Below are positions 15,130 through 59,475 of a stretch of DNA of 64,000 nucleotides, one piece after another (positions within the stretch are counted from its first letter, which is position 1; every line of letters begins with the position of its first letter). Both the position numbers and the translations under genes were made by a program. Source of the stretch: an uncultured virus (IMG/VR IMGVR_UViG_3300010885_062553) (Duplodnaviria; Heunggongvirae; Uroviricota; Caudoviricetes). The notes beneath the pieces are model-generated. The model made no database searches. It saw nothing but the letters and a program-made list of their open reading frames with translations, and was not told the DNA's origin. The stretch is taken from the IMG/VR virus record IMGVR_UViG_3300010885_062553; one strand, given 5' to 3'.

Positions 15130-16941
15130 ATGATAGAAGATCTTCTCCGGGAACAGATACTCAAGACTGACTCCAATACTTTAATTTCCAAGTATAGCAA
15201 TATTGGTGCGAATCCCATTAAGAGAGAGACCGCTAAGTCGCTATTCTATGAAGCAGGAAAGAGGAACCCTGCAAAATATGGTCAATTTCTTTTCTACTCT
15301 CTAGGAAGCTACGAGAATGATTTTAAAAACGCTTATTATAGATCAGAATCCGTTTCTTTTAATAAGTCAATTTCTTCTATAGCATCAAAGAACCCCTCTG
15401 CAGGAATGCTAGTTAAGGAAACGATGTCTAACGAGTCAGTTGCTTCGCAAAACACTGGAAACTTAAGTGGGATAGTTTCTTCAACTACATATATTGGTAA
15501 TATTATAGGGGGACTTTCCGCACCCTATTACTGGAAGGATTTTCTTTATTGTAAATACTATGGATCTATTCCTAATAATTACATGATAACGTTAAGAAGA
15601 TTCCCAACTCCAGTTTTGGACAATATGTCTATCCCTGCAGCATTAAAAGATAATGAGGCTTATATAACGGAGGGGGTCGGAAGACCTGTCGCCCAGGCAA
15701 TAACTTGGTTTGGTGGAAATACTGGAAACTCCCTTTCGGGTATACTCAGTTTTACTACTGGATTAAAATGGCTTCCAGCAACACAAGAGGAGATAAAAAG
15801 GCAAGAGGCATTTTCTAAAGGTCTTTTTACTGGTGATCAGGGTATAGGCCCAATGTCATTTATAGGATCCACGTTAGATAAGATTAGTCCACAGGTAAAA
15901 AACATCTATGATGCGGGTAGAAGCATAGTTGAGGGTTTGACTATAGCTACTGATCCTAACGAAACAGTAACTAAAGCTAGACGAACAAGAGCACTTAGAG
16001 ATAAATCTAAGGATTTAGGTGGTGTGATGAGTGAATATATTTGGACGTCAGTTGACGTAGTTACAACAACACAGGTAAGAGCCACTGGACTTCCTTTCAC
16101 CTGGAATGATATCGTTTTGGTCTTTGATTATGATCTAACCTCCGTTGGTGAGGTAAACTCAAAAGCAGCTATGCTGGATATTTTAGCAAATCTTCTTTCA
16201 ATAGGAACAAACTATGGAAATTTCTTAACCCCTGATATTCGATACCAAGCAGACACCCCCGCAATCGCATTCCCTGGAGGAGACAGAGGCCTTGAACTGT
16301 ATTATTCGAATCCCATCAAATGGTTCACAGACTTTGGTAATAAACTTGCCGATGCTACAACAAAAACTTTAAACGATCCGGAATCAAATGCAGTCGACGA
16401 TGTAAGAGCAAAACTTTCTAATCTTCTCCTCGAGGGTGGAAACGATCCAGCAAAATTTGTCGATCAAATAAAGCAATTCGAAAACACACTAGGTACTGCA
16501 GCTGGAAGATTGATAAAACTTTCGGTATCAGGGGAGCTTACTGACAATTATAGGGCGCCATTGTCTCTTTTAACTGGTGCACCAGTGGGAGAATGGCACG
16601 TAACTGTTGGTAATCCTTGTAACCCTATTGCTATGATTGGAAATCTTGTTTGCGATGGGGTTAAAATAGAATTTACTGAATCGCTTGGACCTGATGATTT
16701 TCCAACCGGAGTAAAGGCGACGTTTACGTTAAAGCATGGAAGGGAGAGGGAGAGAGGTGAGATAGAAAGTATCTTTAATAGAGGTGACGGTAAACTTTAT
16801 CAATCTGTATTAAAGACCTCTGCTAATGCACAATCTTTTGCATCAACTGGAGATGTGAACGGAAACGTATTATCAGAAGCCACCAAGAATGCTTATTTGG
16901 ACGGTCAAAGTTGGCAAAAAATTCCTCCGGGTGGGGGTTAA
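15130..16941 (+). CDS. Putative baseplate tail-tube cap/initiator (gp48/gp54-like)
   Basis: C-terminal WHVTVGNP...IGNLVCDGVKIEF...DDFPTGVKATFTLK fits a tube-fold end; lies just before gp53-like and hub-like genes (synteny-based). Confidence 0.45.
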   Translation: MIEDLLREQILKTDSNTLISKYSNIGANPIKRETAKSLFYEAGKRNPAKYGQFLFYSLGSYENDFKNAYYRSESVSFNKSISSIASKNPSAGMLVKETMSNESVASQNTGNLSGIVSSTTYIGNIIGGLSAPYYWKDFLYCKYYGSIPNNYMITLRRFPTPVLDNMSIPAALKDNEAYITEGVGRPVAQAITWFGGNTGNSLSGILSFTTGLKWLPATQEEIKRQEAFSKGLFTGDQGIGPMSFIGSTLDKISPQVKNIYDAGRSIVEGLTIATDPNETVTKARRTRALRDKSKDLGGVMSEYIWTSVDVVTTTQVRATGLPFTWNDIVLVFDYDLTSVGEVNSKAAMLDILANLLSIGTNYGNFLTPDIRYQADTPAIAFPGGDRGLELYYSNPIKWFTDFGNKLADATTKTLNDPESNAVDDVRAKLSNLLLEGGNDPAKFVDQIKQFENTLGTAAGRLIKLSVSGELTDNYRAPLSLLTGAPVGEWHVTVGNPCNPIAMIGNLVCDGVKIEFTESLGPDDFPTGVKATFTLKHGRERERGEIESIFNRGDGKLYQSVLKTSANAQSFASTGDVNGNVLSEATKNAYLDGQSWQKIPPGGG

Positions 16942-16959: not shown

Positions 16960-17550
16960 ATGGCTTTAGAGATAGACACGCTTGTTAGAAATAAATCGGT
17001 ATTTAATCCATCATCTGGATTGACCCTTTGGAATTATGGAATTTGGGATTTAACTAAACCCTCTATTAGCTTTCAGGGGGTCGGTCCAGATTACAAGGCA
17101 CTTGCAATAGTTACCGAATATTTCCAAATGAGACCCGATTTAATTGCTACCATTAAAATGGGTAATCAAAATCAGATGGGCACCTTGCTTAAATTTAATG
17201 CAATAAGTAATCCGTTCTCACTAAATCAGGGACAACTTTTGGCTGTTCCTGATAACAGAACAATTGATGATATGTTTAATGCTAGACAGATTTTAAATCA
17301 GAAAATGGTATCTAGCGACACAAACACTAATCCAAATCAGGGATTTAGAAAAAATCAGGAGCAAAAAAAGTTTGAAATTAGCGACGGAAGAAAGAAATTT
17401 TTGAACAGCCAGATTAAAAACAATCCACAGATGATGCTACCTCCTAACGTTGCACAGCCAGGTGAATCTCCAATCGATAAGAAAAATGGATACCTTGTAT
17501 TAGCTCCTTCCGCAGGTGGAGGTGGATTCAATTTACCAAATAACTCTTAA
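16960..17550 (+). CDS. Baseplate wedge protein, gp53/LysM-like
   Basis: RPDLIA...G.......LLKFNAISNPFSLNQGQLLAVP. Confidence 0.75.
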   Translation: MALEIDTLVRNKSVFNPSSGLTLWNYGIWDLTKPSISFQGVGPDYKALAIVTEYFQMRPDLIATIKMGNQNQMGTLLKFNAISNPFSLNQGQLLAVPDNRTIDDMFNARQILNQKMVSSDTNTNPNQGFRKNQEQKKFEISDGRKKFLNSQIKNNPQMMLPPNVAQPGESPIDKKNGYLVLAPSAGGGGFNLPNNS

Positions 17551-17559
17551 TCCTTAATT

Positions 17560-19119
17560 ATGTCATTAGAGGATATCCAAATAGTAACTTTAGCTTTAAA
17601 CAATATCAAATTGGATGAACAGGTCCAAGTAGATAGAAGAAAGAACCCAGACGATCTACAGAAAGAAAGAGATGATGGATTTGTAGTCGAAAAGAATATA
17701 GGTCTTTATGTTCCCTTTATAACCATTAATGGATATAGTGTTACTAAATATTTAAAAAAGTTTGATCTGAATCTAGATGGATTTTTGCCCATTGTAAAAT
17801 TTACTTTCTATGCACTAGAAAGTGTTTTTATTTCTGTGAATTACCCAAAGGATGGTGATATAGCTTCTGTTTACATGAGATCACCTGGGGATTACTATAA
17901 ACCATTTAGAATGGATTTTAGTATTCTCTCTGTGAATAGTGAGCCTTCAAGTGTGATGGACCCCAGCGGGAAAGATGCCGAAGGCAGAGGTAAAAATTTA
18001 AAATTCACCATTATGGGTGAATGTAGAATCCCTGGACTCTATACTAATCGAATTAAATCATTTAGAGACGTTACCTCTTCTGAATGCTTGCTCCAGGTTT
18101 CTCAGGATTTAAACTTAGGATTTTCCACAAATGACAGGACCTTAAATGACAAGATGACTTGGATATGTCCATCATATTCATATTATGATTTTATACAAGA
18201 GGTTTCTTTGCGTGCTTACAAGGACGACGAAAAAAGTTTTTTTGATTGCTGGATAGATTGCTATTATAATCTCAATTTTGTTAATCTTGGCTCACAGTTT
18301 GATTATGGTGATCCACCTCAGCAAATTGCAGTTTACCTCCCCGGATATGTTGGAGGAGGCTATCAAGCTAGTAATGAATATGCTGCAACCCCAGATCCTG
18401 GACCTGTTCAAGGGCCTTTAGTTTTAACTAATCTTAGTGGGTATGGAACAATTCCTTATTTTATAATTGGATATACCTTGACTTCTAGAAGTGGTCTTAA
18501 CACTAATCAAATGGGATATGTTAATCAGATAGGATTTTATGATGAACACGCGAAAGAAAAAAATCTTTCTAACAAATACATAAAATATGATATAGAATCA
18601 CAGACGCCAGAGAAGATTGGAATAGACGCTATTCTTCAGAAAGGTAGAGCTAGAGATAATTCTTATAAGGAGGAAAAGAGAATAGAATGGCTTGGTGTTT
18701 TAAATTCTAAAATTTCACCAAGTGATGGAGTACATCCTAATTTTATTCATGCGAAGTTTCAAAATCTAATCAACATAAATGATGCAACTAAAATGACATT
18801 AGTTGTTGAATTAGAAAACTATTTTCCTGGAATCTATAGGGGTCAAGTGGTTCCTGTTCAAATTTATGTTAGTGAAACTGGGCTCAGACAACAGAATGCT
18901 GGTAATCAGAGTAATAGAGAAACGAATGACATCCCCTCGCCGGTTCAGGATTTATTTCTTTCTGGTAATTATGTTGTTATTGGGGTGAGTGTTTATTGGA
19001 GTTATTCGGGTGGAAGAATGAGACAGTCTTTAACTTTGGCCAAGAGGGTTTGGAATGCAAATAGCTCAGGTGCCCTACCTAAAGCATTTCCAATATCTCC
19101 AACGAGGGATTTATTTTAA
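17560..19119 (+). CDS. Putative baseplate hub protein (gp27/gpD-like)
   Basis: Position between gp53-like and spike genes; C-terminal PGIYRGQVVPV...LSGNYVVIGVSVYW...QSLTLAKR typical of hub proteins. Confidence 0.55.
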   Translation: MSLEDIQIVTLALNNIKLDEQVQVDRRKNPDDLQKERDDGFVVEKNIGLYVPFITINGYSVTKYLKKFDLNLDGFLPIVKFTFYALESVFISVNYPKDGDIASVYMRSPGDYYKPFRMDFSILSVNSEPSSVMDPSGKDAEGRGKNLKFTIMGECRIPGLYTNRIKSFRDVTSSECLLQVSQDLNLGFSTNDRTLNDKMTWICPSYSYYDFIQEVSLRAYKDDEKSFFDCWIDCYYNLNFVNLGSQFDYGDPPQQIAVYLPGYVGGGYQASNEYAATPDPGPVQGPLVLTNLSGYGTIPYFIIGYTLTSRSGLNTNQMGYVNQIGFYDEHAKEKNLSNKYIKYDIESQTPEKIGIDAILQKGRARDNSYKEEKRIEWLGVLNSKISPSDGVHPNFIHAKFQNLININDATKMTLVVELENYFPGIYRGQVVPVQIYVSETGLRQQNAGNQSNRETNDIPSPVQDLFLSGNYVVIGVSVYWSYSGGRMRQSLTLAKRVWNANSSGALPKAFPISPTRDLF

Positions 19120-19125
19120 TATAGG

Positions 19126-19133
19126 GATAAATA
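19126..19133 (+). promoter_or_regulatory. Putative late promoter variant GATAAATA
   Basis: In the 36-nt gap before 19156; one mismatch to GATATATA and one to T4 TATAAATA. Confidence 0.6.
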
Positions 19134-19155: not shown

Positions 19156-22100
19156 ATGTCAGCAACAGATAAACAAAGGAGTCTCTTTTTAAAAGGGTTT
19201 AAACTTTCTAAACAGGGAAATTATGAGGACCCAACATACCTTGGGTTTAAAGTTGTTTTTGATTTTGGTGTTTTACCTGTTGATCCTGATGACGGTCTGC
19301 CTCCTAGTCCTCTTTTAAAAAAAGAAAACTATTTAACAGGAGCGGATCTTAGTAGTTTTGCTGCCAGAAATCCATTCAGCCAGCCAATGTACGAATTTAA
19401 AACACCAGGACCTGCTGGAGAAATCTCATTCTACTCAGCAAGCGGATATTTAGCTGACAGAGAGGATGGATTTAGAACAGGAGGAAAAAGATCGGATATG
19501 CTTCTTCAATTTCAGGAAACGCTGCGAGATCTTGTTGACAACTACCCTTGGTTTTTACAATCGATTACTGGGCTTGATGCCTTAGCTAAAGTTACCAGAG
19601 GTGGATTTCCTGACGATTCCGCTTCTAATTTTAATCCACAAAGAACTGCAGGAAAAGTCCTGGAATTTAAAACATTAGAATCTTTAAATCTAAGAATAAC
19701 CGCATTAGCTACTCTATACAATCAAGCCACTTTTGATTATGATAATATGAGAGAGCTGGTACCTAGAAACCTCAGAAGATTTATGATGTATATCTTTGTT
19801 ACGGAGATAAGAAATTTCTTTAAAACTTCTAGACTTATAGGGTCCTCTGCTACACTCAAAACAATAGACAACCTATCAACACTTCTTGGCAATGCAAAAA
19901 ATCCAGGAACTTCTCTTGGAGCGGAGGAAGCTGCAGCAGGACAGAATCAACAGTATGGAGTAGGGGGAGGAACAAATCCAGCTAATCCATTTAACTCTTT
20001 TGTCGGAGGTATTTTAAATACAGCTGGAGTTAATAACGATTTAGCTGCCTTTAAAAATCAACAGGATCAGTCTGGGATCAAACCCGTTATTGTTTTTGAG
20101 TGTAGAAATTGCGAATTTGATTTCAGTGAAAGTACTCCAGTCCAAAATATAATGACACCAGGAACTATCTCCCCTGATATAGTGACACAGGGATTCAAAA
20201 TACATGTTGGTCGTGTTAGAATGAGATCGCAGTTTCCTAATATTAGACTAGACGGAAATCCTTTAATACTTGGGGATAGCTGGGACGGATCAAGATCGTC
20301 TGTTCAACAAGCACCAAAAGCACCAAACCCCAAAACCGGACTACAAGGAATACTTGAACTTGGAAAGGATCTATTGACAAATTTTATAGGTAACTCTCTA
20401 AATGATTTGATCAACGAGGGGGTTTCATCCATTACTAGATCTCTATCTGGTGTAGATCGAACCATTTTAGGAAATGCCTATAATTTTAATACTGCTTTAC
20501 TGAATGGAAATAATCTTTCTTTTAATAATGCTCAAAACTTCTTGCAGGGTCTAGGCGGTGGAAACTCAAGGTTGGCTGGACCACAAGGGGGAGGACTGGG
20601 TGGACCTCCTCAAAGAGCATACAATAGTCCAAGTGGTGATGAATATCCAACATCACCCGGTCAAGATCTCGGAGTTCCTCAAAGAGTTTACCCTACTGTC
20701 AGGGATGATGCTTATAGATCTTCTCCAGGGGCAGATCTAGGATTACCAACAAGAGCTTATCTATCACCAGGTGGAGATGAATATCCAACAGTTCCTGGTC
20801 AGGATCTGGGATCACCACAAAGGGTTTATGTAAAACCAACAGGGGATGCATATCCAAACTCACCTGGTTCAGATTTAGGCCTTCCAACAAGGGCATATCC
20901 ATCACCTGGCGGTGACGAGTATCCAACAGTTCCTGGACAGGATCTTGGATCACCACAAAGAGTTTATGTAAAACCGACAGGTGATGTCTATTCAACTTCA
21001 CCAGGATCAGATTTGGGCCTACCAACAAGAGCTTATCCATCTCCTGGTGGCGACGAGTATCCAACCGTTCCTGGGCAGGATCTTGGATCTCCCCAAAGGG
21101 TTTATCAAACCCCATCAGGCGACGTTTATTCAAACAGTCCAGGTAATGATCTGGGTGTTCCTAGCAGAATTTATGGATCCCCAGGTGGTGATGTATATCC
21201 AACAGTTCCAGGTAAAGATCTTGGAGCTCCTGAGAGAGTCTATCAAGATCCTCAAGGAGATGTTTATTCAAACAGTCCAGGAAGAGATCTAGGTCTTCCT
21301 GACAGGGCTTATCCTGAAGCTTCTGGTGATGCTTATACCGGAGTTCCTGGAGCTGATCTAGGGATTCCTGATAGGATTTATAACAATCCATCTGGTGATG
21401 TTTATTCAGCATCTCCAGGACAGGATCTAGGTGTTCCAGATAGAGTTTATCAAGTAGCATCAGGTGATTTATATCCAACATCACCAGGAGAAGATTTAGG
21501 TGTTCCTGATAGGGTTTATCAAACCCCTTCAGGAGATGTCTATTCCAATTCTCCTGGGAGTGAATTAGGTCTTCCTAATAGGATATACGAATCTCCAGGT
21601 AATCGAGATGCTTATCCGGAGGTACCTGGAGATTCTCTAGGTGTTCCCAATAGAATATACCCGACACCGTCGGGAGATGTTTATTCAAATTCGCCAGGTA
21701 GGGATCTTGGATTACCTAACAGAGAGTACAATTTACCTAATGGTGATGCTTATCAAACCGTTCCTGGCGATGATCTTGGAGTTCCTAATAGGGTTTATCC
21801 AAATCCTGCTGGTGATGTTTACCAAAATTCTCCTGGCCCTGATTTAGGACTTCCTGGTAGGGTTTATGCACCCACTGAGGGAGATGTATACTCTAAAGTT
21901 CCTGGAGAAGATCTGGGTGTCCCTGGTAGAGTTTATCCAACCACATCAGGCGATGTTTACTCAAAGTCACCAGGCGAAGATCTTGGACTTCCTAATAGAA
22001 TTTATGGGTCATTGAATGAGGATATGTATTCTAAAGTTCCAGGGGAAGATCTAGGAGCTCCTGATAGAGTTTATCAAACTCCTTCTGGAGACGTCTATCC

Positions 22101-25100
22101 AAATAGCCCAGGGGAAGATCTAGGACTTCCGAATAGGGTTTACAAATCTCCAGAAGGCGATGCATACTATAAAGTTCCAGGAGAAGATCTAGGGGTTCCT
22201 GATAGAGTTTATCAAGCACCTTCTGGCGATGTTTATCCAAACAGCCCTGGAAGGGATTTGGGGGTTCCTAACAGACTATACGGTCAGCCTTCCGGGGATC
22301 TTTATACGAAGTCTCCAGGAGAAGATCTAGGGGTTCCTGATAGAGTTTATCAAGCACCTTCTGGCGATGTTTATCCAAACAGCCCTGGAAGGGATTTGGG
22401 GGTTCCTAATAGATTTTACGGATCTCCAAACGGTGATGCATATCCTAAAGTTATTGGTGATGATCTCGGGGTTCCTGATAGAGTTTATCAAGCACCTTCT
22501 GGCGATGTTTATCCAAACAGTCCAGGTAGTGATCTATCACTTCCAAATAGATTCTACGGATCTCCTGGAGGAGATGTATACCCTAAAGTTCCTGGCGACG
22601 ATCTTGGTTCTCCTGAGAGAATTTATCCTAAGACTACTGGTGACTCCTATCCAAATAATCCAGGGAATGATCTAGGTGTTCCTAATAGATTATATAGCCA
22701 GCCCTCTGGAGACGTATACCCTAAAGTTCCTGGCGAAGATCTTGGGGTTCCTGATAGAATTTACCCAAGAACATCTGGAGATGTTTATTCAGATAGCCCG
22801 GGAAGAGATTTGGGCGTTCCGAATAGACTATATGGTGGACCAGAAGGCGATGCTTATCCTAAAAACCCAGGTGAAGATTTAGGTGTTCCTGATAGAGTTT
22901 ACCCGACCACATCCGGTGATGTCTATCCGAACAGTCAAGGAAAGGCCCTTGGTTTGCCTAACAGATTTTACGAATCCCCTGATGGCGACGTCTATTCTAA
23001 AGTTCCAGGTGATGATCTTGGTGCTCCAAATAGAGTTTATCCAAGAACTCAGGGCGACGTTTATCCTGATAGTCAAGGAAAGGCTCTTGGGGTTCCTAAC
23101 AGATTTTACGAATCACCTTTCGGAGACGAGTACTCTAAATCTCCTGGTAAGGATCTAGGAGTCCCTGGTAGAATTTATCCGAATATTTTCGGAGATGTGT
23201 ATCCAAATTCTCCTGGGGATGATTTAGGACTACCCTCTAGAGCGTATCCTTCGTCTACTGGTGATGTTTATTCTAAAGTTCCTGGAAATGATCTTGGAGT
23301 TCCTGATAGAGTATATGGTAAAACTTCAGGAGATGTTTACCCAGAAAATCCAGGGAAAGACTTAGGACTACCATCTAGAACCTATACTCAATCAACAGGG
23401 GATGAGTATCCTAGAGTCACTGATAACAATACTGGATCGCCTCTTGAAAGTGTGTATTTCAGAACACCAGTTGACGTTTACCCAGAAACCCCCGGCAAAA
23501 ATTTAGGAGTTCCAAATAGAGCATACCCTCCGTCTTCAGGAGACGAGTACCCTAAAGTTCCTGGAAATGATCTTGGAGTTCCTGATAGAGTATATCCAGG
23601 AACGCCAGGCGATATTTATCCAGAAACCCCAGGTAAAGATTTAGGAAACCCTGATAGGGTTTATAAATCACCATATGGAAATGAATATCCTAAATCCAAT
23701 GTTGATGGTACAATATCTCCAGAAAAAGTATATGATAAAATCTCAGGTGACTTTTATCTAGAAACACCAGGTAAAGATTTAGGTGTTCCTAGTAGATTTT
23801 ACGGATCTCCCGGTGGAGATGTATATCCTAAAGTTCCTGGCGATGATCTTGGAGTTCCTGATAGGGTATATCCTAAAACTTCTGGCGATGCTTATCCAAA
23901 TAGAACAGAAAAGGATTTAGAGATCCCGAATAGATTTTATGAAACCCCCGGTATAGACTCATATCCTAAAGTTCCTGGTGATGATCTCGGTGTTCCTGAT
24001 AGGGTATATTCTAAAACTTTTGGTGATGTTTATCCAGGATCACCAGGAAATGATCTATCGGTTCCTAATAGAGTTTATAAATCTCCAGAGGGTTATGAAT
24101 ATCCTAATGTTCCTGGTGATGCTCTTGGAGATCCTAATAGCGTATACCCTAAAACTTTTGGTGATGTTTACCCAGAAACCCCGGGTAAAAATTTAGGTGT
24201 TCCTAATAGAGTTTATAAATCTCCAGAGGGTGATGAATATCCTAATGTTCCTGGAGAAGATCTAGGATCTCCTGATAGGGTATATTCTAAAACAACTGGG
24301 GATGTTTATCAGGATAGCCCAGGAAAAGATCTAGGATTACCTTCCAGAGCTTATCCCGGAATAAATGAAAAAGTGTATCCTGAATCGAGAGGAGGAAATT
24401 CTGATCCTATTGAAAGCGTGTATTCCAGAACACCAGGAGACGTTTATACAAATATTCCAGGAAAAGATCTGGGATTACCTGATAGAGCTTATCCAGGAAT
24501 AAACGAAAGGGCATACCCTAAAAATACAGAAGAAGGTTTTGATAAATTTAAAAGCGTGTATTCCAATATACAAAACTCAGATGTATATCCAACACATCCA
24601 GGGAAAGATCTCGGAAAAGAGAAGTCTAATTATGGGGCAGGTACAGATTTAAACCAGCAAGAAATTTTTGGTAGTATTTATAGAAATTCAAATCCAATAA
24701 TGGATTCAAATACATCCAGTCTCGGAGCGGGAAGCTATGGTTCTACTTACAAGAATGAATACGACAGCAATTCACTAAATACCCCTGGTGTTTACGATCA
24801 AAAATTATATTCGGATCCAGCTAAGGGATTAGGATCTAATCCGGTATATTCACAGCAGAGACCTGATCTTGATATGGGCAACCCTTTAAATACTTTTAAT
24901 AACGAGCCTCCAGGGACAGTGTATCCTCCAACGCCTTCTATCTCTTCATCCAGAGTAAGAGGTGATCTTGGAAGGGATTATCCGCCAGTATCTGGAGATT
25001 TTTTAATGGAACCCCCAATAAATTTAGGGAATCTAAAACCACCTGATAAATATAATATTAGCACAGGAGGACTTAATACTCCTAAATCTAAATTTGAATA

Positions 25101-25101
25101 A
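19156..25101 (+). CDS. 1981-aa baseplate-module protein: globular (possibly tube-fold) N-terminal domain + about 58 x 23-aa Pro/Gly/Tyr repeats
   Basis: Non-repetitive first ~490 aa, then tandem GD(V/A/E)YPxxPGxDLG(V/L)PxRxYxxxx units; located between hub and spike genes. Confidence 0.75.
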   Translation: MSATDKQRSLFLKGFKLSKQGNYEDPTYLGFKVVFDFGVLPVDPDDGLPPSPLLKKENYLTGADLSSFAARNPFSQPMYEFKTPGPAGEISFYSASGYLADREDGFRTGGKRSDMLLQFQETLRDLVDNYPWFLQSITGLDALAKVTRGGFPDDSASNFNPQRTAGKVLEFKTLESLNLRITALATLYNQATFDYDNMRELVPRNLRRFMMYIFVTEIRNFFKTSRLIGSSATLKTIDNLSTLLGNAKNPGTSLGAEEAAAGQNQQYGVGGGTNPANPFNSFVGGILNTAGVNNDLAAFKNQQDQSGIKPVIVFECRNCEFDFSESTPVQNIMTPGTISPDIVTQGFKIHVGRVRMRSQFPNIRLDGNPLILGDSWDGSRSSVQQAPKAPNPKTGLQGILELGKDLLTNFIGNSLNDLINEGVSSITRSLSGVDRTILGNAYNFNTALLNGNNLSFNNAQNFLQGLGGGNSRLAGPQGGGLGGPPQRAYNSPSGDEYPTSPGQDLGVPQRVYPTVRDDAYRSSPGADLGLPTRAYLSPGGDEYPTVPGQDLGSPQRVYVKPTGDAYPNSPGSDLGLPTRAYPSPGGDEYPTVPGQDLGSPQRVYVKPTGDVYSTSPGSDLGLPTRAYPSPGGDEYPTVPGQDLGSPQRVYQTPSGDVYSNSPGNDLGVPSRIYGSPGGDVYPTVPGKDLGAPERVYQDPQGDVYSNSPGRDLGLPDRAYPEASGDAYTGVPGADLGIPDRIYNNPSGDVYSASPGQDLGVPDRVYQVASGDLYPTSPGEDLGVPDRVYQTPSGDVYSNSPGSELGLPNRIYESPGNRDAYPEVPGDSLGVPNRIYPTPSGDVYSNSPGRDLGLPNREYNLPNGDAYQTVPGDDLGVPNRVYPNPAGDVYQNSPGPDLGLPGRVYAPTEGDVYSKVPGEDLGVPGRVYPTTSGDVYSKSPGEDLGLPNRIYGSLNEDMYSKVPGEDLGAPDRVYQTPSGDVYPNSPGEDLGLPNRVYKSPEGDAYYKVPGEDLGVPDRVYQAPSGDVYPNSPGRDLGVPNRLYGQPSGDLYTKSPGEDLGVPDRVYQAPSGDVYPNSPGRDLGVPNRFYGSPNGDAYPKVIGDDLGVPDRVYQAPSGDVYPNSPGSDLSLPNRFYGSPGGDVYPKVPGDDLGSPERIYPKTTGDSYPNNPGNDLGVPNRLYSQPSGDVYPKVPGEDLGVPDRIYPRTSGDVYSDSPGRDLGVPNRLYGGPEGDAYPKNPGEDLGVPDRVYPTTSGDVYPNSQGKALGLPNRFYESPDGDVYSKVPGDDLGAPNRVYPRTQGDVYPDSQGKALGVPNRFYESPFGDEYSKSPGKDLGVPGRIYPNIFGDVYPNSPGDDLGLPSRAYPSSTGDVYSKVPGNDLGVPDRVYGKTSGDVYPENPGKDLGLPSRTYTQSTGDEYPRVTDNNTGSPLESVYFRTPVDVYPETPGKNLGVPNRAYPPSSGDEYPKVPGNDLGVPDRVYPGTPGDIYPETPGKDLGNPDRVYKSPYGNEYPKSNVDGTISPEKVYDKISGDFYLETPGKDLGVPSRFYGSPGGDVYPKVPGDDLGVPDRVYPKTSGDAYPNRTEKDLEIPNRFYETPGIDSYPKVPGDDLGVPDRVYSKTFGDVYPGSPGNDLSVPNRVYKSPEGYEYPNVPGDALGDPNSVYPKTFGDVYPETPGKNLGVPNRVYKSPEGDEYPNVPGEDLGSPDRVYSKTTGDVYQDSPGKDLGLPSRAYPGINEKVYPESRGGNSDPIESVYSRTPGDVYTNIPGKDLGLPDRAYPGINERAYPKNTEEGFDKFKSVYSNIQNSDVYPTHPGKDLGKEKSNYGAGTDLNQQEIFGSIYRNSNPIMDSNTSSLGAGSYGSTYKNEYDSNSLNTPGVYDQKLYSDPAKGLGSNPVYSQQRPDLDMGNPLNTFNNEPPGTVYPPTPSISSSRVRGDLGRDYPPVSGDFLMEPPINLGNLKPPDKYNISTGGLNTPKSKFE
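20635..24640 (+). repeat. Coding tandem repeat, 69-bp unit (138-bp higher-order dimer), about 58 copies
   Basis: Counted by hand from the translation; exact DNA duplicate at a 138-bp offset, 22176-22271 = 22314-22409. Confidence 0.95.
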
Positions 25102-25103
25102 AA

Positions 25104-25805
25104 ATGCCAAGTGAAAAAACATACCTGGGTTCAGTTGTAGATAACAAGGACCCGCTTTATGAGGGAAGAGCCAGAGTGAGAGTCTTCGGAGTTCTTGATG
25201 ATATTCCTGTTGAAGATCTTCCTTGGGCAGAGCAAATCTCTGGTCTTTCTTTTGGTGGAAATGGCGGAGGGGGTAACCTTTCTATACCTAGAATTGGAGC
25301 TGTGGTTGGTGTACATTTTGAGGAGAATAATTATTATAAAATGAACTATCAATCGATTAAGGAGATCTCTGATGATCTTTTATCTGAGCTCAAAGATGAT
25401 AATTCTTATGAGGGTACGCAATCACTTATATACGATTCTGAAGCTCGACCTGGTCCACTTAAAATGATCTATACACGTAGGAAGGGATTGGTATTTCAAT
25501 TAGGGGAGGCAACAATACAACTAGATACTCAAAACGCAAAAGATGGATCTGAAAATCTTAGGATTGTTCTGAAAATGAACGACGATGAAATCCGCATGGA
25601 GAGGAAGAACGGAAAACAAACAGTTATTGTTAATAGCTCTAGCATAGAGCTTGGAGAAAATGCAATCGAGAGGTTAGTCCTTGGAGATTCTTTTATGAAG
25701 CTTTTTAATTCACACACTCATAAAACTGAAACTGGAGAAACTGAATCTCCTTCTCAAAAAATGGAAATAATTGCTCACCTTAGTAGAGTTTCCAAATCTA
25801 AATAA
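25104..25805 (+). CDS. Baseplate central spike, gp5 N-terminal OB-fold / gpV-like, without lysozyme domain
   Basis: YLGSVVDNKDPLYEGRARVRVFG...LPWA...IPRIGAVVGVHF; C-terminal FNSHTH (HxH tip motif). Confidence 0.85.
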   Translation: MPSEKTYLGSVVDNKDPLYEGRARVRVFGVLDDIPVEDLPWAEQISGLSFGGNGGGGNLSIPRIGAVVGVHFEENNYYKMNYQSIKEISDDLLSELKDDNSYEGTQSLIYDSEARPGPLKMIYTRRKGLVFQLGEATIQLDTQNAKDGSENLRIVLKMNDDEIRMERKNGKQTVIVNSSSIELGENAIERLVLGDSFMKLFNSHTHKTETGETESPSQKMEIIAHLSRVSKSK

Positions 25806-25887: not shown

Positions 25888-27048
25888 ATGAGTTTTAATC
25901 TAGCAGAAGATTTCGATTGGACGCTACCAAACAAAAGAGCGGTTAATGCAAAAATTAAAGCCCCAGAGGGGTCAAGAGTTTATTCCCATGAAAAGTATGC
26001 TCAAGATTTGAGCAATTTATACTTTAGTGGGGTTTCTTATGAATTTGATAAAATAGGGAAAGACCTTAAAGATGGTGAGGTTTATCCATGTAAAATCACA
26101 AACATGAACGAGACTGAAGCATTGGCTCAGACTTCGGCAGGCCAGACGATTTATATAGACCTAAGAAAAGAGAGAAGAGATGCCGCTAAATTAAATTTAG
26201 AGGAGATAGACTTTCAAGTTGGAGCGGAATTTAAAGCTAGTGTTAGAAAAGTAGGAAGCAGCTATTTTGGCTCCGTTATTGATTTCTATATGCATAGTAT
26301 CAGAGACGAATTCTTTGCACAAATCAAAGAAGGATCTCATGCATACAGAGCTAAAATAGAAAGTATAAATAAAGGTGGCTATATCGCAAGCATTTCAGGA
26401 ATAAAATGTTTCCTTCCTGGATCATTAGCTGCGGCAAACAGAATTACAGATTTTGAGTCTTATATAGGAAAGGAACTTCCTGTTATGATCGAAGGTTATG
26501 TTGACGCAAAAGACATCTTTATTATCTCTTATAAGAAATACTTAAATAAGATCATGGATTCTAAAATACAGGAGCTTGATCTTACTAAAAAATATAAAGG
26601 ATTCGTTACAGGAACCAGCGACTTTGGAGTATTCGTAGAATGGGAAGAAGTTTACACTGGTCTAATCCATAAAACTGAATTTGAAAATGATTCTAGAGTT
26701 ACCTCGTTTATACCTGGTGATGAAATAGAATTCTATATCAAAGAGATAAAGGAAAATAACAGATTAACTCTAACTTTAGAAAAACCACTAGAGAAGAATG
26801 TAATCCTACAAGAGCTTGAGACAAAGATAAAAGACGGAGACTGCGAGTCATTTGAGGCTAGAATTAAGCACTTAAGAAAAAATGGAATTCTTGTTGAATT
26901 AATAGCTCTTGGTCTTATGGCACTAATACCTCAAGATAGAGTCGGTAAGAATAACAGAGGATTCAAACCTGGTGATTCCCTGACAGTTTCACTTTATGAA
27001 GTTGAGGTCAATGCAGGAAAAATATTTGCAGAACCAGTAAATGAGTAA
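25888..27048 (+). CDS. rpsA: Ribosomal protein S1-like protein (about 4 S1/OB domains)
   Basis: INKGGYIASISGIKCFLPGSLA and GFVTGTSDFGVFVEWEEVYTGLIHKTEF match bS1 repeats; shorter than six-domain bS1. Confidence 0.8.
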   Translation: MSFNLAEDFDWTLPNKRAVNAKIKAPEGSRVYSHEKYAQDLSNLYFSGVSYEFDKIGKDLKDGEVYPCKITNMNETEALAQTSAGQTIYIDLRKERRDAAKLNLEEIDFQVGAEFKASVRKVGSSYFGSVIDFYMHSIRDEFFAQIKEGSHAYRAKIESINKGGYIASISGIKCFLPGSLAAANRITDFESYIGKELPVMIEGYVDAKDIFIISYKKYLNKIMDSKIQELDLTKKYKGFVTGTSDFGVFVEWEEVYTGLIHKTEFENDSRVTSFIPGDEIEFYIKEIKENNRLTLTLEKPLEKNVILQELETKIKDGDCESFEARIKHLRKNGILVELIALGLMALIPQDRVGKNNRGFKPGDSLTVSLYEVEVNAGKIFAEPVNE

Positions 27049-28462: not shown

Positions 28463-29263
28463 ATGATATTAGATGGTTTAATTCAGGAAATAGAAGACGC
28501 GCTATCCTTTAGCTGTGCTCTCCCATATAACCTAAACAAACAAGAGGTTGAAAGAATTATAGGACGTGCTAAGTCATGGTTTAGAGACAATTACCAGTAT
28601 GCTGTGGAGGATAGAGTTTTTATTCTTAAAAATGCAATATTTAAACATAAAGAATTTAGAGCAACCAGACAAATTAAATTGCCTGAGTCTATCGTGACTG
28701 TTTATGATGTAAGGGAAGTTGGAGGATCAGGAATTTCAGGAAATCCGGATAGAGATTTTAGCGACTCTAAACTTTTAGGATCTGAACTTTTACTTTCTCC
28801 TTTTGTTGGAGATAATCTAGTTTATAGAACGGTAATGTACTCCTATTTTGATTTATCTAGAGCTTACCTTCTAAATACTTTTGCATTTAAATGGAACAAG
28901 AACACAAAGAACTTAACCATCCTGGGTAGGGATCCATCAAGATCTGGTAAGGGTGGAACATCCGCTAATTCAAATGGACAGCTAGCTCAGGGATTTGGGG
29001 TAGGTGGGGTTGACGTAGCAGTTAGATGCTTTGTTGCTATAAATGACGAAGACCTTTTTAAAGATGAATTGTTTGTTAGATACTGTATAGCTAAATCTAA
29101 GATAGCGTTAGCTAATATGCTTTCCGTGTTTAACTATAATCTTCCTGGTGGAATACAAGTAAATTCTGGTGATATAAAAGCTACGGGTGAAGCGGAGCTT
29201 CAGGAGGTTATGGAAATGATTAATGGTGAGAATACACCTAGCTATTTCTTGCAGTGGAATTAA
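28463..29263 (+). CDS. Neck protein, T4 gp13-like
   Basis: C-terminal FVRYCIAKSK...FNYNLPGGIQVNSGDIKATGEAELQE fits the gp13 LPGG motif. Confidence 0.7.
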   Translation: MILDGLIQEIEDALSFSCALPYNLNKQEVERIIGRAKSWFRDNYQYAVEDRVFILKNAIFKHKEFRATRQIKLPESIVTVYDVREVGGSGISGNPDRDFSDSKLLGSELLLSPFVGDNLVYRTVMYSYFDLSRAYLLNTFAFKWNKNTKNLTILGRDPSRSGKGGTSANSNGQLAQGFGVGGVDVAVRCFVAINDEDLFKDELFVRYCIAKSKIALANMLSVFNYNLPGGIQVNSGDIKATGEAELQEVMEMINGENTPSYFLQWN

Positions 29264-29287
29264 AGAATACCGAAAAAATATCCAAAG

Positions 29288-29311
29288 ACCCCGGAATTTC
29301 CGGGGTTTTTT
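29288..29311 (+). terminator. Intrinsic terminator
   Basis: ACCCCGGA-ATT-TCCGGGGTTTTTT. Confidence 0.9.
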
Positions 29312-29337
29312 ATTTGTTGTGGCTCTTATGAAATTGA

Positions 29338-29345
29338 GATATATA
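29338..29345 (+). promoter_or_regulatory. Putative late promoter GATATATA
   Basis: Directly after the terminator and before the gp25-like gene. Confidence 0.75.
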
Positions 29346-29367
29346 ATATCAGTATTAGCATTTAAGT

Positions 29368-29739
29368 ATGAAAGAACTTTACAATAGGGATCCACAAGAC
29401 CCAAAATATAATCCATATCAGATAGAGACGACAGATCCTGTAGAGATTTGTACTGGCCAATTGAAGATGTTGCTTCTAACAAACAAAGGTGAAGTGTTAG
29501 GAGATCCTAGATTTGGACTAAATCTGGAGGATCTTATCTTTAATCTTAATGTATCAGAATCAGGTCTTAAGAATGAACTTGATACTTTTTTAACGACCTA
29601 CATTCCTCTTTTTTCAACACTTGGCGGAAGTTACGATCTCAATTTTTTTCAAGGAACTCAAAGAGACGTAGCAACTTTAGATTTTATGCTCCCTTCTGAT
29701 GGAGGATTAAGTCCAACAATAACTTTAAGAATAACATAA
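29368..29739 (+). CDS. Baseplate wedge/sheath initiator, gp25-like
   Basis: LKMLLLTNKGEVLGDPRFGLNLEDLIF. Confidence 0.85.
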   Translation: MKELYNRDPQDPKYNPYQIETTDPVEICTGQLKMLLLTNKGEVLGDPRFGLNLEDLIFNLNVSESGLKNELDTFLTTYIPLFSTLGGSYDLNFFQGTQRDVATLDFMLPSDGGLSPTITLRIT

Positions 29740-29747
29740 TTTAGAAA

Positions 29748-31475
29748 ATGAATATTTTTAAGAAAAATAACATCCTGATTAACGGACTCTTAACTGACAC
29801 CTTTAATTTTCTACAGGATACTTATAACCAGACCGTAAATTTGTTCACAGTTGCTTCTGCATGGGGACAAATTTTGTTTGTCGTTCAGAATCTATCGCAA
29901 ATGATATTATACTTTATCGAGGATTCTATTACGGAGCTAAATATAGAAAATGCTACAAGGGATTATTCAGTAAGAAGCTTGGCTAGAATTTCTGGATATG
30001 ATCCGGGAAGATCGACATCGGCTCAGGGTGAAGTTTTTGTTTCCTGGAACACATTACAGTCTGATGTTGGAGGGGGATGTATCATTCTAAGTAACCACAC
30101 ACAAATAAGATGTCAAGAGAACGGTAGAACTTACTCGCTCGTTCTAGGAGCTCAGAAATTAACAATTCCGCTTACAGGAGGAACTAATCCAATTAGATGT
30201 AAAATAGTTCAGGGTGTATTTAATTCTTTTACAGTTACAGGAACAGGTCTTTCTCTACAGAGCTTTAGTATTCCTATACAATCCGCTTCATTTGTAGATC
30301 AATTTTATGTTGATGTTTATGTTAATGAGGAAAAATGGAAAAGATACGATTCTCTTTATGACATCCCTCTAAACAAAAAGGGATATCTCGTCAAGAGTGG
30401 AATTCAGGAAGGCATAGATATTTATTTCGGTAATTCTAATTTTGGAATGGTTCCCCAGAAGGGATCTAAAATAAGAATAGAATACCTTCAAAATGTAGGA
30501 ACAGGAGGTAATGTTGCATCCACTAAAGATAATCCAATAAGTTATAAATTCAACCAAACAGGCACAGATCTTTTTGGTAAAGAAGTGGATCTTGGAAATT
30601 ATTTAGATATTAAACAAAGTATAGATCCGATGTTTGGAACAAATCCAGACTCTACCAATTTAATAAGACTGGTTGCTCCTAAAGTTAGTAGATCGTTTGT
30701 TTTTGCAAATGCCCAAAATTATGAGATCTTTCTAGATAAACTTGGTATATTTTCTCAAATACAAGCATTCTCTACTTTTGACGACGATTACTTGGACGAT
30801 GATAATGTTGTTTATCTTTATTTGATACCTAATATTACACTTAACATCTCGTCTAATCAAGATTATTTCAGTGTTCCTGTTGAAGATTTTCTATTAACAG
30901 AACCACAGAAAAAAATGATAGTTAAACTTATTCAGGATTCAGGATCTATGATAGCTACAACGGTAATACAAATAGTTGATCCTGTAATATCTAGATATGT
31001 TACGAATGTTGTTTTTACTATTTTTGAAGGGTATGATCCAGAATCAGTAAAGAAAGAAATTAGGAAAAGAATATCTACGTATATGCTAAATACGACAAGA
31101 AGGGATTATATTCCTAAATCCGATTTGATAGCTATAGTTGAATCTATAGATGGTGTCGATTCAGTCAATCTCTACTTTGTTGGTCAAAAGAACGAGGAGA
31201 ATCAGTCAAAGATGAAGGATCTTACAAATATATCCGATCAACAAATGTCGCAGTTGTTAGGACTTAATGATTTCGGAGATATAGTTATAGGTAGAAATGA
31301 GCTTGTAGTTTTAAGAGGTGGTTGGACAGATAGAAACGGTATAACTTATACGGAGGGTATAGTAGAAGGAAAACCAGGACCATTAAATATGAGTGTATCT
31401 TCTACTACTAAGAAAGATTACAGAGCGGAATTAAATGCTAACACCAAGGCTCAAATTACAAAATCTTCTAACTAA
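29748..31475 (+). CDS. Baseplate wedge protein, gp6/baseplate-J-like
   Basis: ATRDYSVRSLARISGYDP...SAQG, IYFGNSNFGMVP..GSKIRIEY...G..GN, IDGVDSV; follows the gp25-like gene. Confidence 0.85.
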   Translation: MNIFKKNNILINGLLTDTFNFLQDTYNQTVNLFTVASAWGQILFVVQNLSQMILYFIEDSITELNIENATRDYSVRSLARISGYDPGRSTSAQGEVFVSWNTLQSDVGGGCIILSNHTQIRCQENGRTYSLVLGAQKLTIPLTGGTNPIRCKIVQGVFNSFTVTGTGLSLQSFSIPIQSASFVDQFYVDVYVNEEKWKRYDSLYDIPLNKKGYLVKSGIQEGIDIYFGNSNFGMVPQKGSKIRIEYLQNVGTGGNVASTKDNPISYKFNQTGTDLFGKEVDLGNYLDIKQSIDPMFGTNPDSTNLIRLVAPKVSRSFVFANAQNYEIFLDKLGIFSQIQAFSTFDDDYLDDDNVVYLYLIPNITLNISSNQDYFSVPVEDFLLTEPQKKMIVKLIQDSGSMIATTVIQIVDPVISRYVTNVVFTIFEGYDPESVKKEIRKRISTYMLNTTRRDYIPKSDLIAIVESIDGVDSVNLYFVGQKNEENQSKMKDLTNISDQQMSQLLGLNDFGDIVIGRNELVVLRGGWTDRNGITYTEGIVEGKPGPLNMSVSSTTKKDYRAELNANTKAQITKSSN

Positions 31476-55892: not shown

Positions 55893-57677
55893 ATGCCAAA
55901 AACGAATATATTAGCTATAAATTATAATGACGATCAGAGCTCTATTATAAATAAGTTAAATAATAATTTTGATGAAACGTTGGAGCTTCATGGGGGATCT
56001 CAGGGAATTCAGGGTGAAACCGGTCCCGCTGGTCCTATAGGTGAGATTGGGCCAAAGGGACAAACAGGAAATTCTGGAGTCAGAGGGAGCAAGTGGTTAA
56101 TCTCATCTTCAGCTCCAATAGGTGGTATTGATAATCCGATTATATTAAGTGACTATTGGGTTAATAGCAATGATGGTGAGATTAGCATTTTTACTGATTA
56201 TGGCTGGACCCCTACTGGATATAATTTAAATTCGACTGGTGAGGTTTTTTCTATAGTGGAAAGTAGGTATAGAGATAATGCAAGTCCAGCTTCCGGATTG
56301 ACCGGATCTTCTCTAATAATAAATCAGATAGATCCTAGCTTATATTCTTTTATTTTTTCAGACAGTAATCCAGAAGCAGGACCAACAAATCCGGATCTTT
56401 CCAAATTTGTGATATCCACTGATTCGTCAGTAAATTCAGGAGCACTTCTTGAGTTTTCTAAAACAAATCTAGAAACAGGTTCACCTTTAGATTATGGACA
56501 GCATCCAGTATTTAAATGGACTTCACCAGGCATTAATAATAGCTCATTGCTATGGGGAATTCCGGGAGGATCATTTTCTCTTGGAGCTTCTGGTGGAATT
56601 TCTTTCTCTTTTGATTCCTCTACTTTATCCTCAGGAAGAAGCATGTTTATTAATTATGGAGTCGGGGTTACTGGAACTTCCGGATTTAATGGGATCTATG
56701 CCACTGGAGGTATACAGATAAATTCGTCTAACTTCGTCATCGATTCTAAATTTTTGACTTACAATAAGGGATACTACAGTGGACCTAATTATGGAAGCTC
56801 ACTTCAAATTAGGAATTCTTTTAATCTCAATTACCCTAATTCTGTTTCTGAAATTCCTGTACTAAGAATAAATGGATTACCTGGATCACTTCTTTCTGTA
56901 GAGAGAGAAAATGATTCATTGTCAGCATCTTCCCTCCAGAACTATGCTTTTTCTTTCAAATCTCAAAATGTAAACAAATCATATCTTGATTCTAGAGGCA
57001 AACTTTTGACTGGTGCTTCATATTCGCCTATAATTTTTCCAGGAAATCTCTCAGGAATAACAGCATCTGCCAGTGGTCCAACGGGAACAAATGAAGTTGT
57101 TTCGTGGTATTTATTATCTCAGCCATATACGGAAACACTCACAATCACACAGCAGAATGGGATTCTAGGTGTAGTTCCGGTTACTAGCGGGAATACTTTA
57201 GTTTTTACTCCGAATTTTCCAAATTTAGGAGGAGCTAAAGGATCTTATGTTGGGATTGGATTTTATTCAGGATCAGGAGGATGGAATGACACATATTCGT
57301 CAACAGGGCCTACTGCTAGCAGAAATTTCCTTCTCTCCGGGGAATCTGTTAGCTTTACTGCATATTGTGTATCTGATACTTATTCAGGGTATGGCTACCC
57401 TTCCAGCCCTTCCAGCTTTTCTGACACTTCAAACTATAATGGGTTTGGCTATATCGGATATGGAGGGACATCAGGAACTGTCAATAGAGTAGTTAATCTC
57501 CCATTCAAAGCTCAAGCAATGGATTTTACCATTTATAGGCCAGCTACGGGAGGGGGATTTACAGGGGGAATTGGTGTTTATTGGAGAGCTTATAGTACTG
57601 GAATAACCCCAGGAACAACTAGCACAGTAAATACAGGAGGATCAGGAGGCTTTTTTACTATACCTGATATATATTAA
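55893..57677 (+). CDS. Collagen-repeat tail fibre-like protein, paralogue 1
   Basis: 11 Gly-X-Y triplets after K.N.NF motif; shared NP..SK.VIST, LEFSK and P.F.W blocks. Confidence 0.7.
   Translation: MPKTNILAINYNDDQSSIINKLNNNFDETLELHGGSQGIQGETGPAGPIGEIGPKGQTGNSGVRGSKWLISSSAPIGGIDNPIILSDYWVNSNDGEISIFTDYGWTPTGYNLNSTGEVFSIVESRYRDNASPASGLTGSSLIINQIDPSLYSFIFSDSNPEAGPTNPDLSKFVISTDSSVNSGALLEFSKTNLETGSPLDYGQHPVFKWTSPGINNSSLLWGIPGGSFSLGASGGISFSFDSSTLSSGRSMFINYGVGVTGTSGFNGIYATGGIQINSSNFVIDSKFLTYNKGYYSGPNYGSSLQIRNSFNLNYPNSVSEIPVLRINGLPGSLLSVERENDSLSASSLQNYAFSFKSQNVNKSYLDSRGKLLTGASYSPIIFPGNLSGITASASGPTGTNEVVSWYLLSQPYTETLTITQQNGILGVVPVTSGNTLVFTPNFPNLGGAKGSYVGIGFYSGSGGWNDTYSSTGPTASRNFLLSGESVSFTAYCVSDTYSGYGYPSSPSSFSDTSNYNGFGYIGYGGTSGTVNRVVNLPFKAQAMDFTIYRPATGGGFTGGIGVYWRAYSTGITPGTTSTVNTGGSGGFFTIPDIY
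57666..57673 (+). promoter_or_regulatory. Putative late promoter GATATATA overlapping the end of the upstream CDS
   Basis: Exact octamer 25 nt before the ATG at 57699. Confidence 0.55.
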
Positions 57678-57698
57678 ACAGTAAACCATTAAACCTAA

Positions 57699-59468
57699 AT
57701 GTCAGATCTAAAGATATTAAAAATAGATAGAGGCGATTCTCAAAAAACTCTAATAGATAAGGTAAATTATAATTTTTCTAGTATCGTTTCTTTTGGAGGA
57801 GGACCTTATGGAAAAACTGGAAAAGCGGGGACTCAGGGGGATCAAGGTGGTATTGGACCAACTGGGTCTTATGGAGATCCGGGTGTAAGAGGTCAAACCT
57901 GGTTTGTTGGAGCCAACAATCCTACCAGTCCAATCCAGGGGGATCTGTGGTTAAATACAGGAAATTATAATACTGTCTATAAATATGAGAGTTCTTCCTG
58001 GAATTTATACGATCTAAATCTAAGAGCACAAGATGTTTTTAGAATCTATACTCCGATAGTATCCGGATTTTCTAATTCTGGGTATTTCAATTCTTCAGTA
58101 AATCCATTAAACTATACTCTTGTATTATCGGACTCCTCTTTTTCTCTTGCTGGAAACAGTCTAAATGCTTTTAACCCGCAGTCCAGTAAGGTTGTTATCT
58201 CTACGAATAGTCTGATAGCTCAAAGAAAAATTTTAGAATTCTCTAAATCAGATTCCGACTCATTAGCATTTTCTAAATCACCATCTTTTTATTGGGTGGT
58301 TGGACCAACAACAGGTAAGGAAACATGGGAAACTGGAACCCCTGCTACTAGTGGAAATTATGGATTGATCTTAAATTCTCCTGAAGGATTTCTAGTTAAT
58401 AGTAAAAAATCATTTAACATAAATTCCTCTTCCAATTTTTATTCGTATTCAAATGGAATCTCTATAAACACGTCTTCAAATTCACCTATTGTGTTTAATT
58501 CTGGATCTTATTTTAGCCTTTCGCTTTCTGGTGGAGTTTTAAAATTATCATCTTCTAATCTATACGCATCATCATCTAATATATTAAACTATTCAGGAGC
58601 ATTTCTTTATAATAATTTATACGATAACTCTAGAGACTCTAAAGCTTTTAGAATAAGTAGTTCAGGAAACACTTCAAATTTAATAGTTAATAATTCTCTG
58701 GCTCCAAGCAGAAATTCTACTCTTCTCCATATAAGGGACACCTATTACGGAAATGACGTTTTAAAATTATATTCAAATGGTGATCTTTACGCTTTAAGAA
58801 AATTTAATGCAATCCAAAATCCAGTATGGGTTAATAACGGGGGAACATCCTCAGTGGAGTTACCTGGAACTGGTGGGAGTCCGAGTCTGCCAAAAAGTAC
58901 TGTATATTGGCTTAATGTTGTTCCTTCGGTAGCTAGTGGAGGAACTGGACCTTTTGAAAGCTGTCTTTTCTGTAGCTCTGGTACTGATTTTATAGTGGAT
59001 CCTGCTAACTATGGACCTAATGTCAATCTTGGGATATCTTTATGGACACCAGCATATTCTTCAAATTCTATGGACTCTGTATCAAATGGAGGATGGCTTA
59101 ATCTTTTAAATGATCTGGAATCGATAACTTTTACCGTTAGAATGAAAACTCCAGGAAGATATTTTAGATTCGTTGGGTTAAATACAAATACTGGATTAAC
59201 CGGAGCGCCTGATGGAGCTGGACCTACTGGTCCTGCTGATACATATGGAAATTATCAAGTTCATATGCTTTCTGCAACAGGAGCTCCTGGTGCAACAAAT
59301 ATAGAATTCACAATACTTAATTTATCAAATGGAGTTGCTAGATCGCAAACTGATAGATGGTTTAAAGTCTACTATTCAGCTTACGGTGGTCTTTCTTCGG
59401 CTACTGGAAGTTCAGAATATAGCGTTTCGGGTGTTTTGTGTAAGAATGGAACAATAACTTATATTTAA
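57699..59468 (+). CDS. Collagen-repeat tail fibre-like protein, paralogue 2
   Basis: 11 Gly-X-Y triplets, same architecture as paralogue 1. Confidence 0.7.
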   Translation: MSDLKILKIDRGDSQKTLIDKVNYNFSSIVSFGGGPYGKTGKAGTQGDQGGIGPTGSYGDPGVRGQTWFVGANNPTSPIQGDLWLNTGNYNTVYKYESSSWNLYDLNLRAQDVFRIYTPIVSGFSNSGYFNSSVNPLNYTLVLSDSSFSLAGNSLNAFNPQSSKVVISTNSLIAQRKILEFSKSDSDSLAFSKSPSFYWVVGPTTGKETWETGTPATSGNYGLILNSPEGFLVNSKKSFNINSSSNFYSYSNGISINTSSNSPIVFNSGSYFSLSLSGGVLKLSSSNLYASSSNILNYSGAFLYNNLYDNSRDSKAFRISSSGNTSNLIVNNSLAPSRNSTLLHIRDTYYGNDVLKLYSNGDLYALRKFNAIQNPVWVNNGGTSSVELPGTGGSPSLPKSTVYWLNVVPSVASGGTGPFESCLFCSSGTDFIVDPANYGPNVNLGISLWTPAYSSNSMDSVSNGGWLNLLNDLESITFTVRMKTPGRYFRFVGLNTNTGLTGAPDGAGPTGPADTYGNYQVHMLSATGAPGATNIEFTILNLSNGVARSQTDRWFKVYYSAYGGLSSATGSSEYSVSGVLCKNGTITYI

Positions 59469-59475
59469 AATAGAT

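Follow-up and report, generated by a model that had tools for sequence, protein, structure and literature searches.

The window analysed here is a stretch of 64,000 nucleotides from an uncultured virus of the Caudoviricetes (IMG/VR record IMGVR_UViG_3300010885_062553), whose source contig is a 141-kb piece of a large, contractile-tailed jumbo phage with complete relatives of 290–430 kb. Positions 19156–25101 (plus strand) form an open reading frame (ORF) for a protein of 1981 amino acids (aa), hereafter designated the array protein, in which a head domain is followed by a linker, a long array of tandem repeats, and a C-terminal tail. The gene and its parts, assigned with an AlphaFold2 (AF2) model, structure comparison by VIA-align, alignments, and a scan for repeat units, are as follows:

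19126..19133, plus strand: GATAAATA box, probable late promoter, with ATAAATA conserved upstream
19156..20310, plus strand: tail-tube-fold domain, residues 1–385 (AF2, VIA-align); probably gp54-like tube initiator
20311..20634, plus strand: conserved linker, residues 386–493, bearing the first LGN(A/V)Y motif of the family (alignment)
20635..24645, plus strand: array of 58 units, residues 494–1830, consensus GDVYPxxPGxDLGVPxRVYxxPS (unit scan)
24646..25101, plus strand: C-terminal tail of low complexity, bearing degenerate xVY motifs and a clade-conserved end segment (homologue sequences)

An earlier note, made from the letters of this DNA, had described about 58 tandem 23-aa units with two Tyr each, and the unit scan bears this out: 58 units were counted (three span 24 aa and the other 55 span 23 aa; a 59th row, scoring 1/16, was not counted), with Tyr at both positions in all 58. 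Fifty-four units match at least 10 of the 16 consensus positions with exact spacing, and four, at residues 1415, 1508, 1738, and 1784, are degenerate. The array is rich in Pro (14.8%), Gly (13.9%), Asp (10.3%), and Tyr (8.9%), Pro and Gly together making up 29%, lacks Cys and Trp, and has a net charge of −74. Units are more alike at lag 2 than at lag 1 (identity 0.65 versus 0.49), giving a 46-aa double period that corresponds to 138 bp in the DNA, where duplication signatures were found at 69 and 138 bp. The invariant unit residues are encoded by varied synonymous codons; their persistence while these codons diverge argues for selection on the protein. Since, moreover, a second record (L001) encodes a homologue of identical size, 1981 aa, an assembly artefact is unlikely.

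Six units modelled by AF2 as a monomer (101-row alignment) gave a predicted local distance difference test score (pLDDT) of 38 and a predicted template modelling score (pTM) of 0.14. In this modelling of several units alone, which the earlier note had proposed, no autonomous fold appeared, and the model, which gave no beta-solenoid, suggests that the array does not fold by itself. As that note had supposed of a repeat of unrecognised type, no match to the array was found in Pfam; PHROGs returned three unnamed families without a passing stretch, the best Atlas match of residues 700–1000 (0.78) was at chance level, and no match was found among annotated phages. Nor did literature searches, which covered sources other than subscription journals, list a description of the repeat. 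A collagen-like repeat, already dismissed in the earlier note, was rejected on the Gly content, the absence of a triplet register, and the absence of a PF01391 match. Two other proteins of the window give weak PF01391 matches.

A search with the array alone returned 450 proteins. Among the 120 matches listed, 112 of the 114 new proteins bear the same head domain and the remaining two are N-terminally truncated members; the repeat is, among these matches, confined to the head-domain family. The 41 viral loci comprise 38 complete genes of 743–891 aa, one of 1642 aa (L003), one of 1981 aa, and one truncated. The arrays of close relatives hold about 5–13 units, and unit number varies up to about eightfold among relatives whose head domains are 57–76% identical; the window phage and the L003 phage, both with long arrays, are sister lineages. 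One homologue (L069:1216) ends after 294 aa, yet array units follow downstream, and a frameshift or an assembly error is possible there.

In the wider family, PGxxLG is absent from 131 of 149 representatives, and most distant members are array-less. An LG(N/D)VY-type motif occurs in 78 of the 126 family representatives of at least 340 aa, as compared with 3.5 in shuffles, and is terminal in 42 of the 126, as compared with 3.0. A consensus built from 102 members of the family also shows LGNxY, within the linker, which by inspection looks amphipathic-helix-like. We interpret the array as a docking motif multiplied many times, probably from the LG(N/D)VY of array-less relatives.

The gene also has a promoter box of its own, as had been noticed before. 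The GATAAATA box, which we take to resemble a T4 late promoter, is probably a late promoter, judging from its conservation: ATAAATA lies 5′ of the array gene in 19 of the 20 loci examined (the window phage being one), and on the contig, with 122 ORFs, it precedes 7 of them where 1.5 would be expected. In a sigma-70 scan, the count (53) was no better than chance (47 expected).

Head domain and baseplate setting

The globular domain that had been placed in front of the array turned out to have a tail-tube fold. Residues 1–385 were modelled by AF2 from a 102-row alignment with a pLDDT of 76.7; an insert near residues 222–305 is helical and in part disordered. Among 48,161 chains, the best VIA-align match was 5iv5_BG of the T4 baseplate–tube complex (Z 9.8, root-mean-square deviation 5.5, 181 residues aligned), presumably a copy of gp54 in view of its range 2–254 and the chain naming. 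It is followed by tail tubes, baseplate/tube chains of contractile systems, and Hcp; every entry in rows 1–40 is a tail, baseplate, neck, or Hcp-containing one. Foldseek of the same model against the PDB found nothing at E ≤ 0.001, and sequence searches with the head-domain profile returned no useful match from the PDB, Pfam, or PHROGs. The head-domain family itself comprises 893 cluster representatives at E ≤ 0.001.

The gene lies in a baseplate cluster, with the following neighbours:

15130..16941, plus strand: 603-aa protein, probably a gp48-like second initiator (a lead; closest Atlas family with a name, PF11091 T4_tail_cap, at 0.88)
16960..19119, plus strand: 196-aa gene (gp53-like, by position) and 519-aa gene (hub-like, by position); weak or unnamed PHROG matches, order kept in relatives
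25104..25805, plus strand: gp5/VgrG-type OB-fold spike gene (phrog_430, E 8e-18; PF04717, E 8e-4)
28463..31475, plus strand: neck adaptor, gp25-like, and gp6-like wedge genes (phrog_211, phrog_261, phrog_219)

The position between hub and spike genes given in the earlier note holds, with the 519-aa gene upstream, whose sole match is an unnamed PHROG, and the gp5-like spike downstream; the gp53-like and hub-like roles are presumed from position. The 603-aa neighbour is probably a gp48-like second initiator, as a lead from sequence: PF11091 is borne by 25% of the Atlas cluster nearest to it, and hhalign of this protein against T4 gp48 was null. The array gene is, as expected for an initiator, in a baseplate setting and separate from the major tube genes, which lie in the sheath operon. 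On the basis of the modelled fold and this setting, we consider it very likely that the array protein is a baseplate tail-tube initiator. Because of the tube fold, the gp48 lead for the 603-aa neighbour, and the major tube genes in the sheath operon, it is probably of the gp54-like type, profile comparisons with gp54 and gp48 both being null.

T4 gp54 (PDB 5IV5; KP1 homologue, 9F4A/9F4B chain BQ) shares with the array protein the tube fold, extensions beyond the tube domain, and a gene placed second in the pair of initiator-like genes of a baseplate cluster. The two have no detectable sequence similarity, and gp54 (320 aa) has a short C-terminal extension, whereas the window protein has about 1500 aa of 23-aa repeats after the tube domain. 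For the KP1 homologue, the structure with tube and sheath has 295 modelled residues as compared with 220 in the baseplate cup alone, a precedent for initiator extensions that are ordered by the tail. The anchor loop of T4 gp48 is described as a baseplate-proximal extension clamping tube, sheath, and baseplate (10.64898/2026.03.06.709160), and so is the extension loop of the P7-1 sheath initiator (PMC13338283). Unlike the long array, these extensions are of tens of residues, single-copy, and restricted to the first rings.

The closest cultured homologues, PTm1 gp235, MA9V-1_111, and MaF61 ORF80, are uncharacterised proteins with head domains 28–31% identical to that of the window protein; unlike it, they are array-less, with 401–435 aa. 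In PTm1 and MA9V-1 the gene immediately precedes a spike-like gene, as in the window, and the PTm1 homologue has LGNVY motifs, one of them at the C-terminus. Because the cultured homologues come from phages of Bacteroidota (Tenacibaculum, Chryseobacterium, and Flavobacterium), the host is probably also a member of the Bacteroidota.

Downstream of the spike, a gene of 474–642 aa follows in 37 of the 41 loci (for example L005:13011 and L006:13006), one copy of which, when tested, had no PHROG match; in a second clade the gene after the spike is mostly of 1550–1720 aa. The 474–642-aa gene is missing in the window phage (25805–25888; L001) and in L003, while the remaining two loci break off before this point. 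A protein with S1 RNA-binding domains (PF00575, E 5e-18) is encoded at 25888–27048, within the baseplate cluster, in a position kept in relatives. Elsewhere in the window (55893–61263), three tandem paralogues of about 590 aa have short collagen-like starts and tail-fibre PHROG matches. Outside it (G000:C1:133611-138334), a tandem pair of genes (564 and 542 aa) that resemble each other, present in relatives too, looks like duplicated portal-type genes.

Tape-measure candidate and arm length

In the textbook view of contractile tails, one internal tape-measure protein sets the tail length, and the length of the sheath follows that of the tube. The window contains no tape-measure gene, as the earlier note had remarked, but a candidate is present on contig L094 of the same phage, which overlaps the contig of the window at 99.97–100% over about 35 kb. 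The search elsewhere that the note had recommended thus led to a 1276-aa candidate after the sheath (1131 aa), two tube genes, and a hub-type (hub-chaperone) gene, phrog_150:

L094:9263-13093, minus strand: 1276-aa low-complexity tape-measure candidate (canonical position; phrog_19914, E 2e-4, weak)
L094:14482-15633, minus strand: tandem tube paralogues, 184 and 191 aa, downstream of an approximately 1120-aa sheath throughout the clade

The candidate gene occupies this canonical position in 25 of the 50 records searched (of 62 chosen), among them all nine near-complete ones. Its product has 1276 aa in the window phage, the same in three assemblies, versus 483–584 aa in 24 other records, and 47 further complete candidate frames, some redundant, span 458–611 aa; the lengths for the 25 matching records and for the second-clade pair described below are those of stop-to-stop frames. 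The 1276-aa candidate contains a block of 22–23-aa repeats (residues 400–790) and two copies of a VGENGPE motif as compared with one in short relatives; no 23-aa period was found in the candidates of the short-array phages, nor any match to the 1276-aa protein among annotated phages. Tape-measure proteins of the T4 gp29 type likewise have repeats of about 23 aa, and their length may track that of the tail, as the array may. The array differs from them in being fused to a tube domain and rich in Pro and Gly; it has no tape-measure profile match in PHROGs or Pfam, and the canonical slot is held by another gene.

The lengths of the two proteins were compared with those of other genes. Among 98 orthologues of the window phage and three relatives, 86 agree within 10% in length, and only the array protein (2.49-fold) and the tape-measure candidate (2.32-fold) are more than 1.5-fold longer; a 931-aa ORF (723–877 aa in relatives) stands outside the 98. 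In 19 distinct short-array records (from the 25 matches, L161 with a truncated arm and the duplicates L016, L022, L023, and L025 were dropped), arm length is correlated with candidate length (Pearson 0.75, Spearman 0.49). The line through these records extrapolates to 1227 ± 148 aa for the window phage, in which 1276 aa is observed. About 14 candidate residues were gained per added unit. With 12 neighbouring genes as controls, p < 0.05 was obtained for one, the S1 gene, which is nearly invariant, and by Pearson alone.

Proposed role of the arm and rival explanations

As the best reading overall, in which we place about even confidence, we propose an initiator with a disordered, multivalent arm that docks along the sheath or tube and is longer where the tail is longer; slightly less confidence attaches to the arm both binding along the tail and being length-coupled. 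We infer a ring formed by the tube domain where the tube starts, each subunit of which would extend one disordered arm. The half-motifs D-x-Y and DLG-x-P-x-R-x-Y would be repeats of LG(N/D)VY, present once to a few times in distant members, and the arm may fold upon binding equivalent sites on successive tail subunits, on the sheath or the outer surface of the tube. Above the baseplate, the bound arm may nucleate, register, or brace the sheath, while the tape-measure protein would fix the length and the arm would tend to grow alongside. For a ring height of 4 nm and the usual rise per residue, about 14 residues per unit would span about 2 nm in a helical ruler, so that two units (a 46-aa pair) would match one ring; in an extended ruler they would span about 4 nm, with a single unit for each ring. 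Of the three alternatives in the earlier note (a ruler or tether, a multivalent scaffold, and an elastomer-like filament), the multivalent scaffold or tether fits best, its partner being conjectural.

Several observations weigh against this proposal. The profile comparisons (hhalign) of the array protein with T4 gp54 and gp48 were null; of the comparisons with gp54, gp48, and tube folds suggested earlier, the one by VIA-align gave a match, to the tube fold. The 1276-aa protein is a candidate tape measure, by gene order and weak PHROG matches (E 5e-6 to 2e-4 in four of five candidate proteins). A single expansion event underlies the long form in the window phage. After correction for relatedness the trend is weak: independent contrasts calculated without this phage gave r 0.61 (p 0.006), yet only 8 of 18 share a sign, and for nine clade means r was 0.62, with p 0.07, and Spearman 0.30, with p 0.43. 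A second-clade pair has arms of 481 and 312 aa and tape-measure frames of 604 and 602 aa (in that clade, the tape-measure query matched 1 of 40 records and the chaperone 2 of 34). In L215, the nearest relative by sheath (85% identical), whose contig does not include the arm gene, the tape-measure frame is only 611 aa long. L003, with its 1642-aa array protein, has no tape-measure gene on its contig, and no bridging contig was found. Finally, array-less homologues accompany long tails, so that the wider family can do without an array.

Because the runs holding the L003 phage cover L215 only in short, mostly <95% pieces, L215 is probably a different phage from L003; holes in contigs prove nothing here. 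The first Met of the L215 frame (L215:13778-15823) lies 117 codons in, a non-ATG start being possible, and another, small open frame separates the hub-type gene from it. A contig from the L003-phage runs pointed to a distant clade.

It is possible, though rather unlikely, that in the same initiator only the first few motifs dock near the baseplate, the rest being tolerated tandem duplication and the tape-measure candidate having grown in parallel without functional link, as two disordered proteins tolerant of length change that expanded in one lineage. The equal frames of the second-clade pair despite a 169-aa arm difference would be expected in that case, as would the weak clade-level trend, the single expansion event, and the 69- and 138-bp signatures, the tape-measure expansion being likewise repeat-based with a period of 22–23 aa. 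It would not lead one to expect that 54 of 58 units keep at least 10 of 16 positions and their spacing despite diverged synonymous codons, that other variable-length neighbours are unexpanded, or that the short-array line predicts 1276 aa within error. An arm inside the tube lumen, paired with the tape-measure protein or co-ejected with it, would scale for that reason, and both expansions are near a 23-aa period; we nevertheless find it improbable, since lumen space is tight and the short-array tape-measure candidates have no 23-aa period. T4 gp48 is reported to bind the tape-measure protein (10.64898/2026.03.06.709160), but that contact then belongs to gp48, whose likelier counterpart is the 603-aa neighbour.

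About equally doubtful is an arm exposed as a filament, either at the baseplate or at the tip of the tail, serving host contact or as an elastomer, possibly dityrosine-linked, and perhaps replacing the lost post-spike protein. Dityrosine cross-links and elasticity are features of resilin-like elastomers, and the array has 29% Pro plus Gly and 9% Tyr; the post-spike gene, moreover, is absent from both long-array phages. However, these are sisters and represent one loss event, their contigs are incomplete, so that the gene may sit elsewhere, and units spaced at a constant 23 aa that share invariant Asp, Leu, Arg, and Tyr would suit a lattice-binding motif better than an elastomer; the tape-measure expansion would also be left unexplained. 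That the array itself is the tape measure, with one unit per ring and another role for the post-chaperone protein, is very improbable, although its unit length is near-invariant and the PHROG matches of the other candidate are weak: relatives with about 5–13 units would have very short tails, and MA9V-1, whose homologue (MA9V-1_111, 417 aa) is array-less, has a tail of about 170 nm (PMC10537231). Because of this tail and the separate candidate in half of the records, we are highly confident that the array is not the primary ruler; what survives of the ruler idea in the earlier note is a link to length through the co-expansion of arm and candidate.

Returning to the initiator with a docking arm, a tentative and rather unlikely extension would make the arm a second, external length-coupled element, with six arms running up the tail, one unit or pair per ring, and templating or restraining the sheath. 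If so, an approximately twofold longer tail would have required co-expansion of an inner tape measure and an outer arm. An arm tracking the tape measure would point to a further rule, readable from sequence, by which the sheath of large contractile tails is assembled or stabilised, and such a coupling would be useful for the design of longer contractile machines. Overall, the array protein is probably a known type of baseplate protein with an apparently uncatalogued, family-specific repeat arm; even without coupling, a fold and a probable role are provided for a family of 893 cluster representatives that lacks a Pfam or PHROG name.

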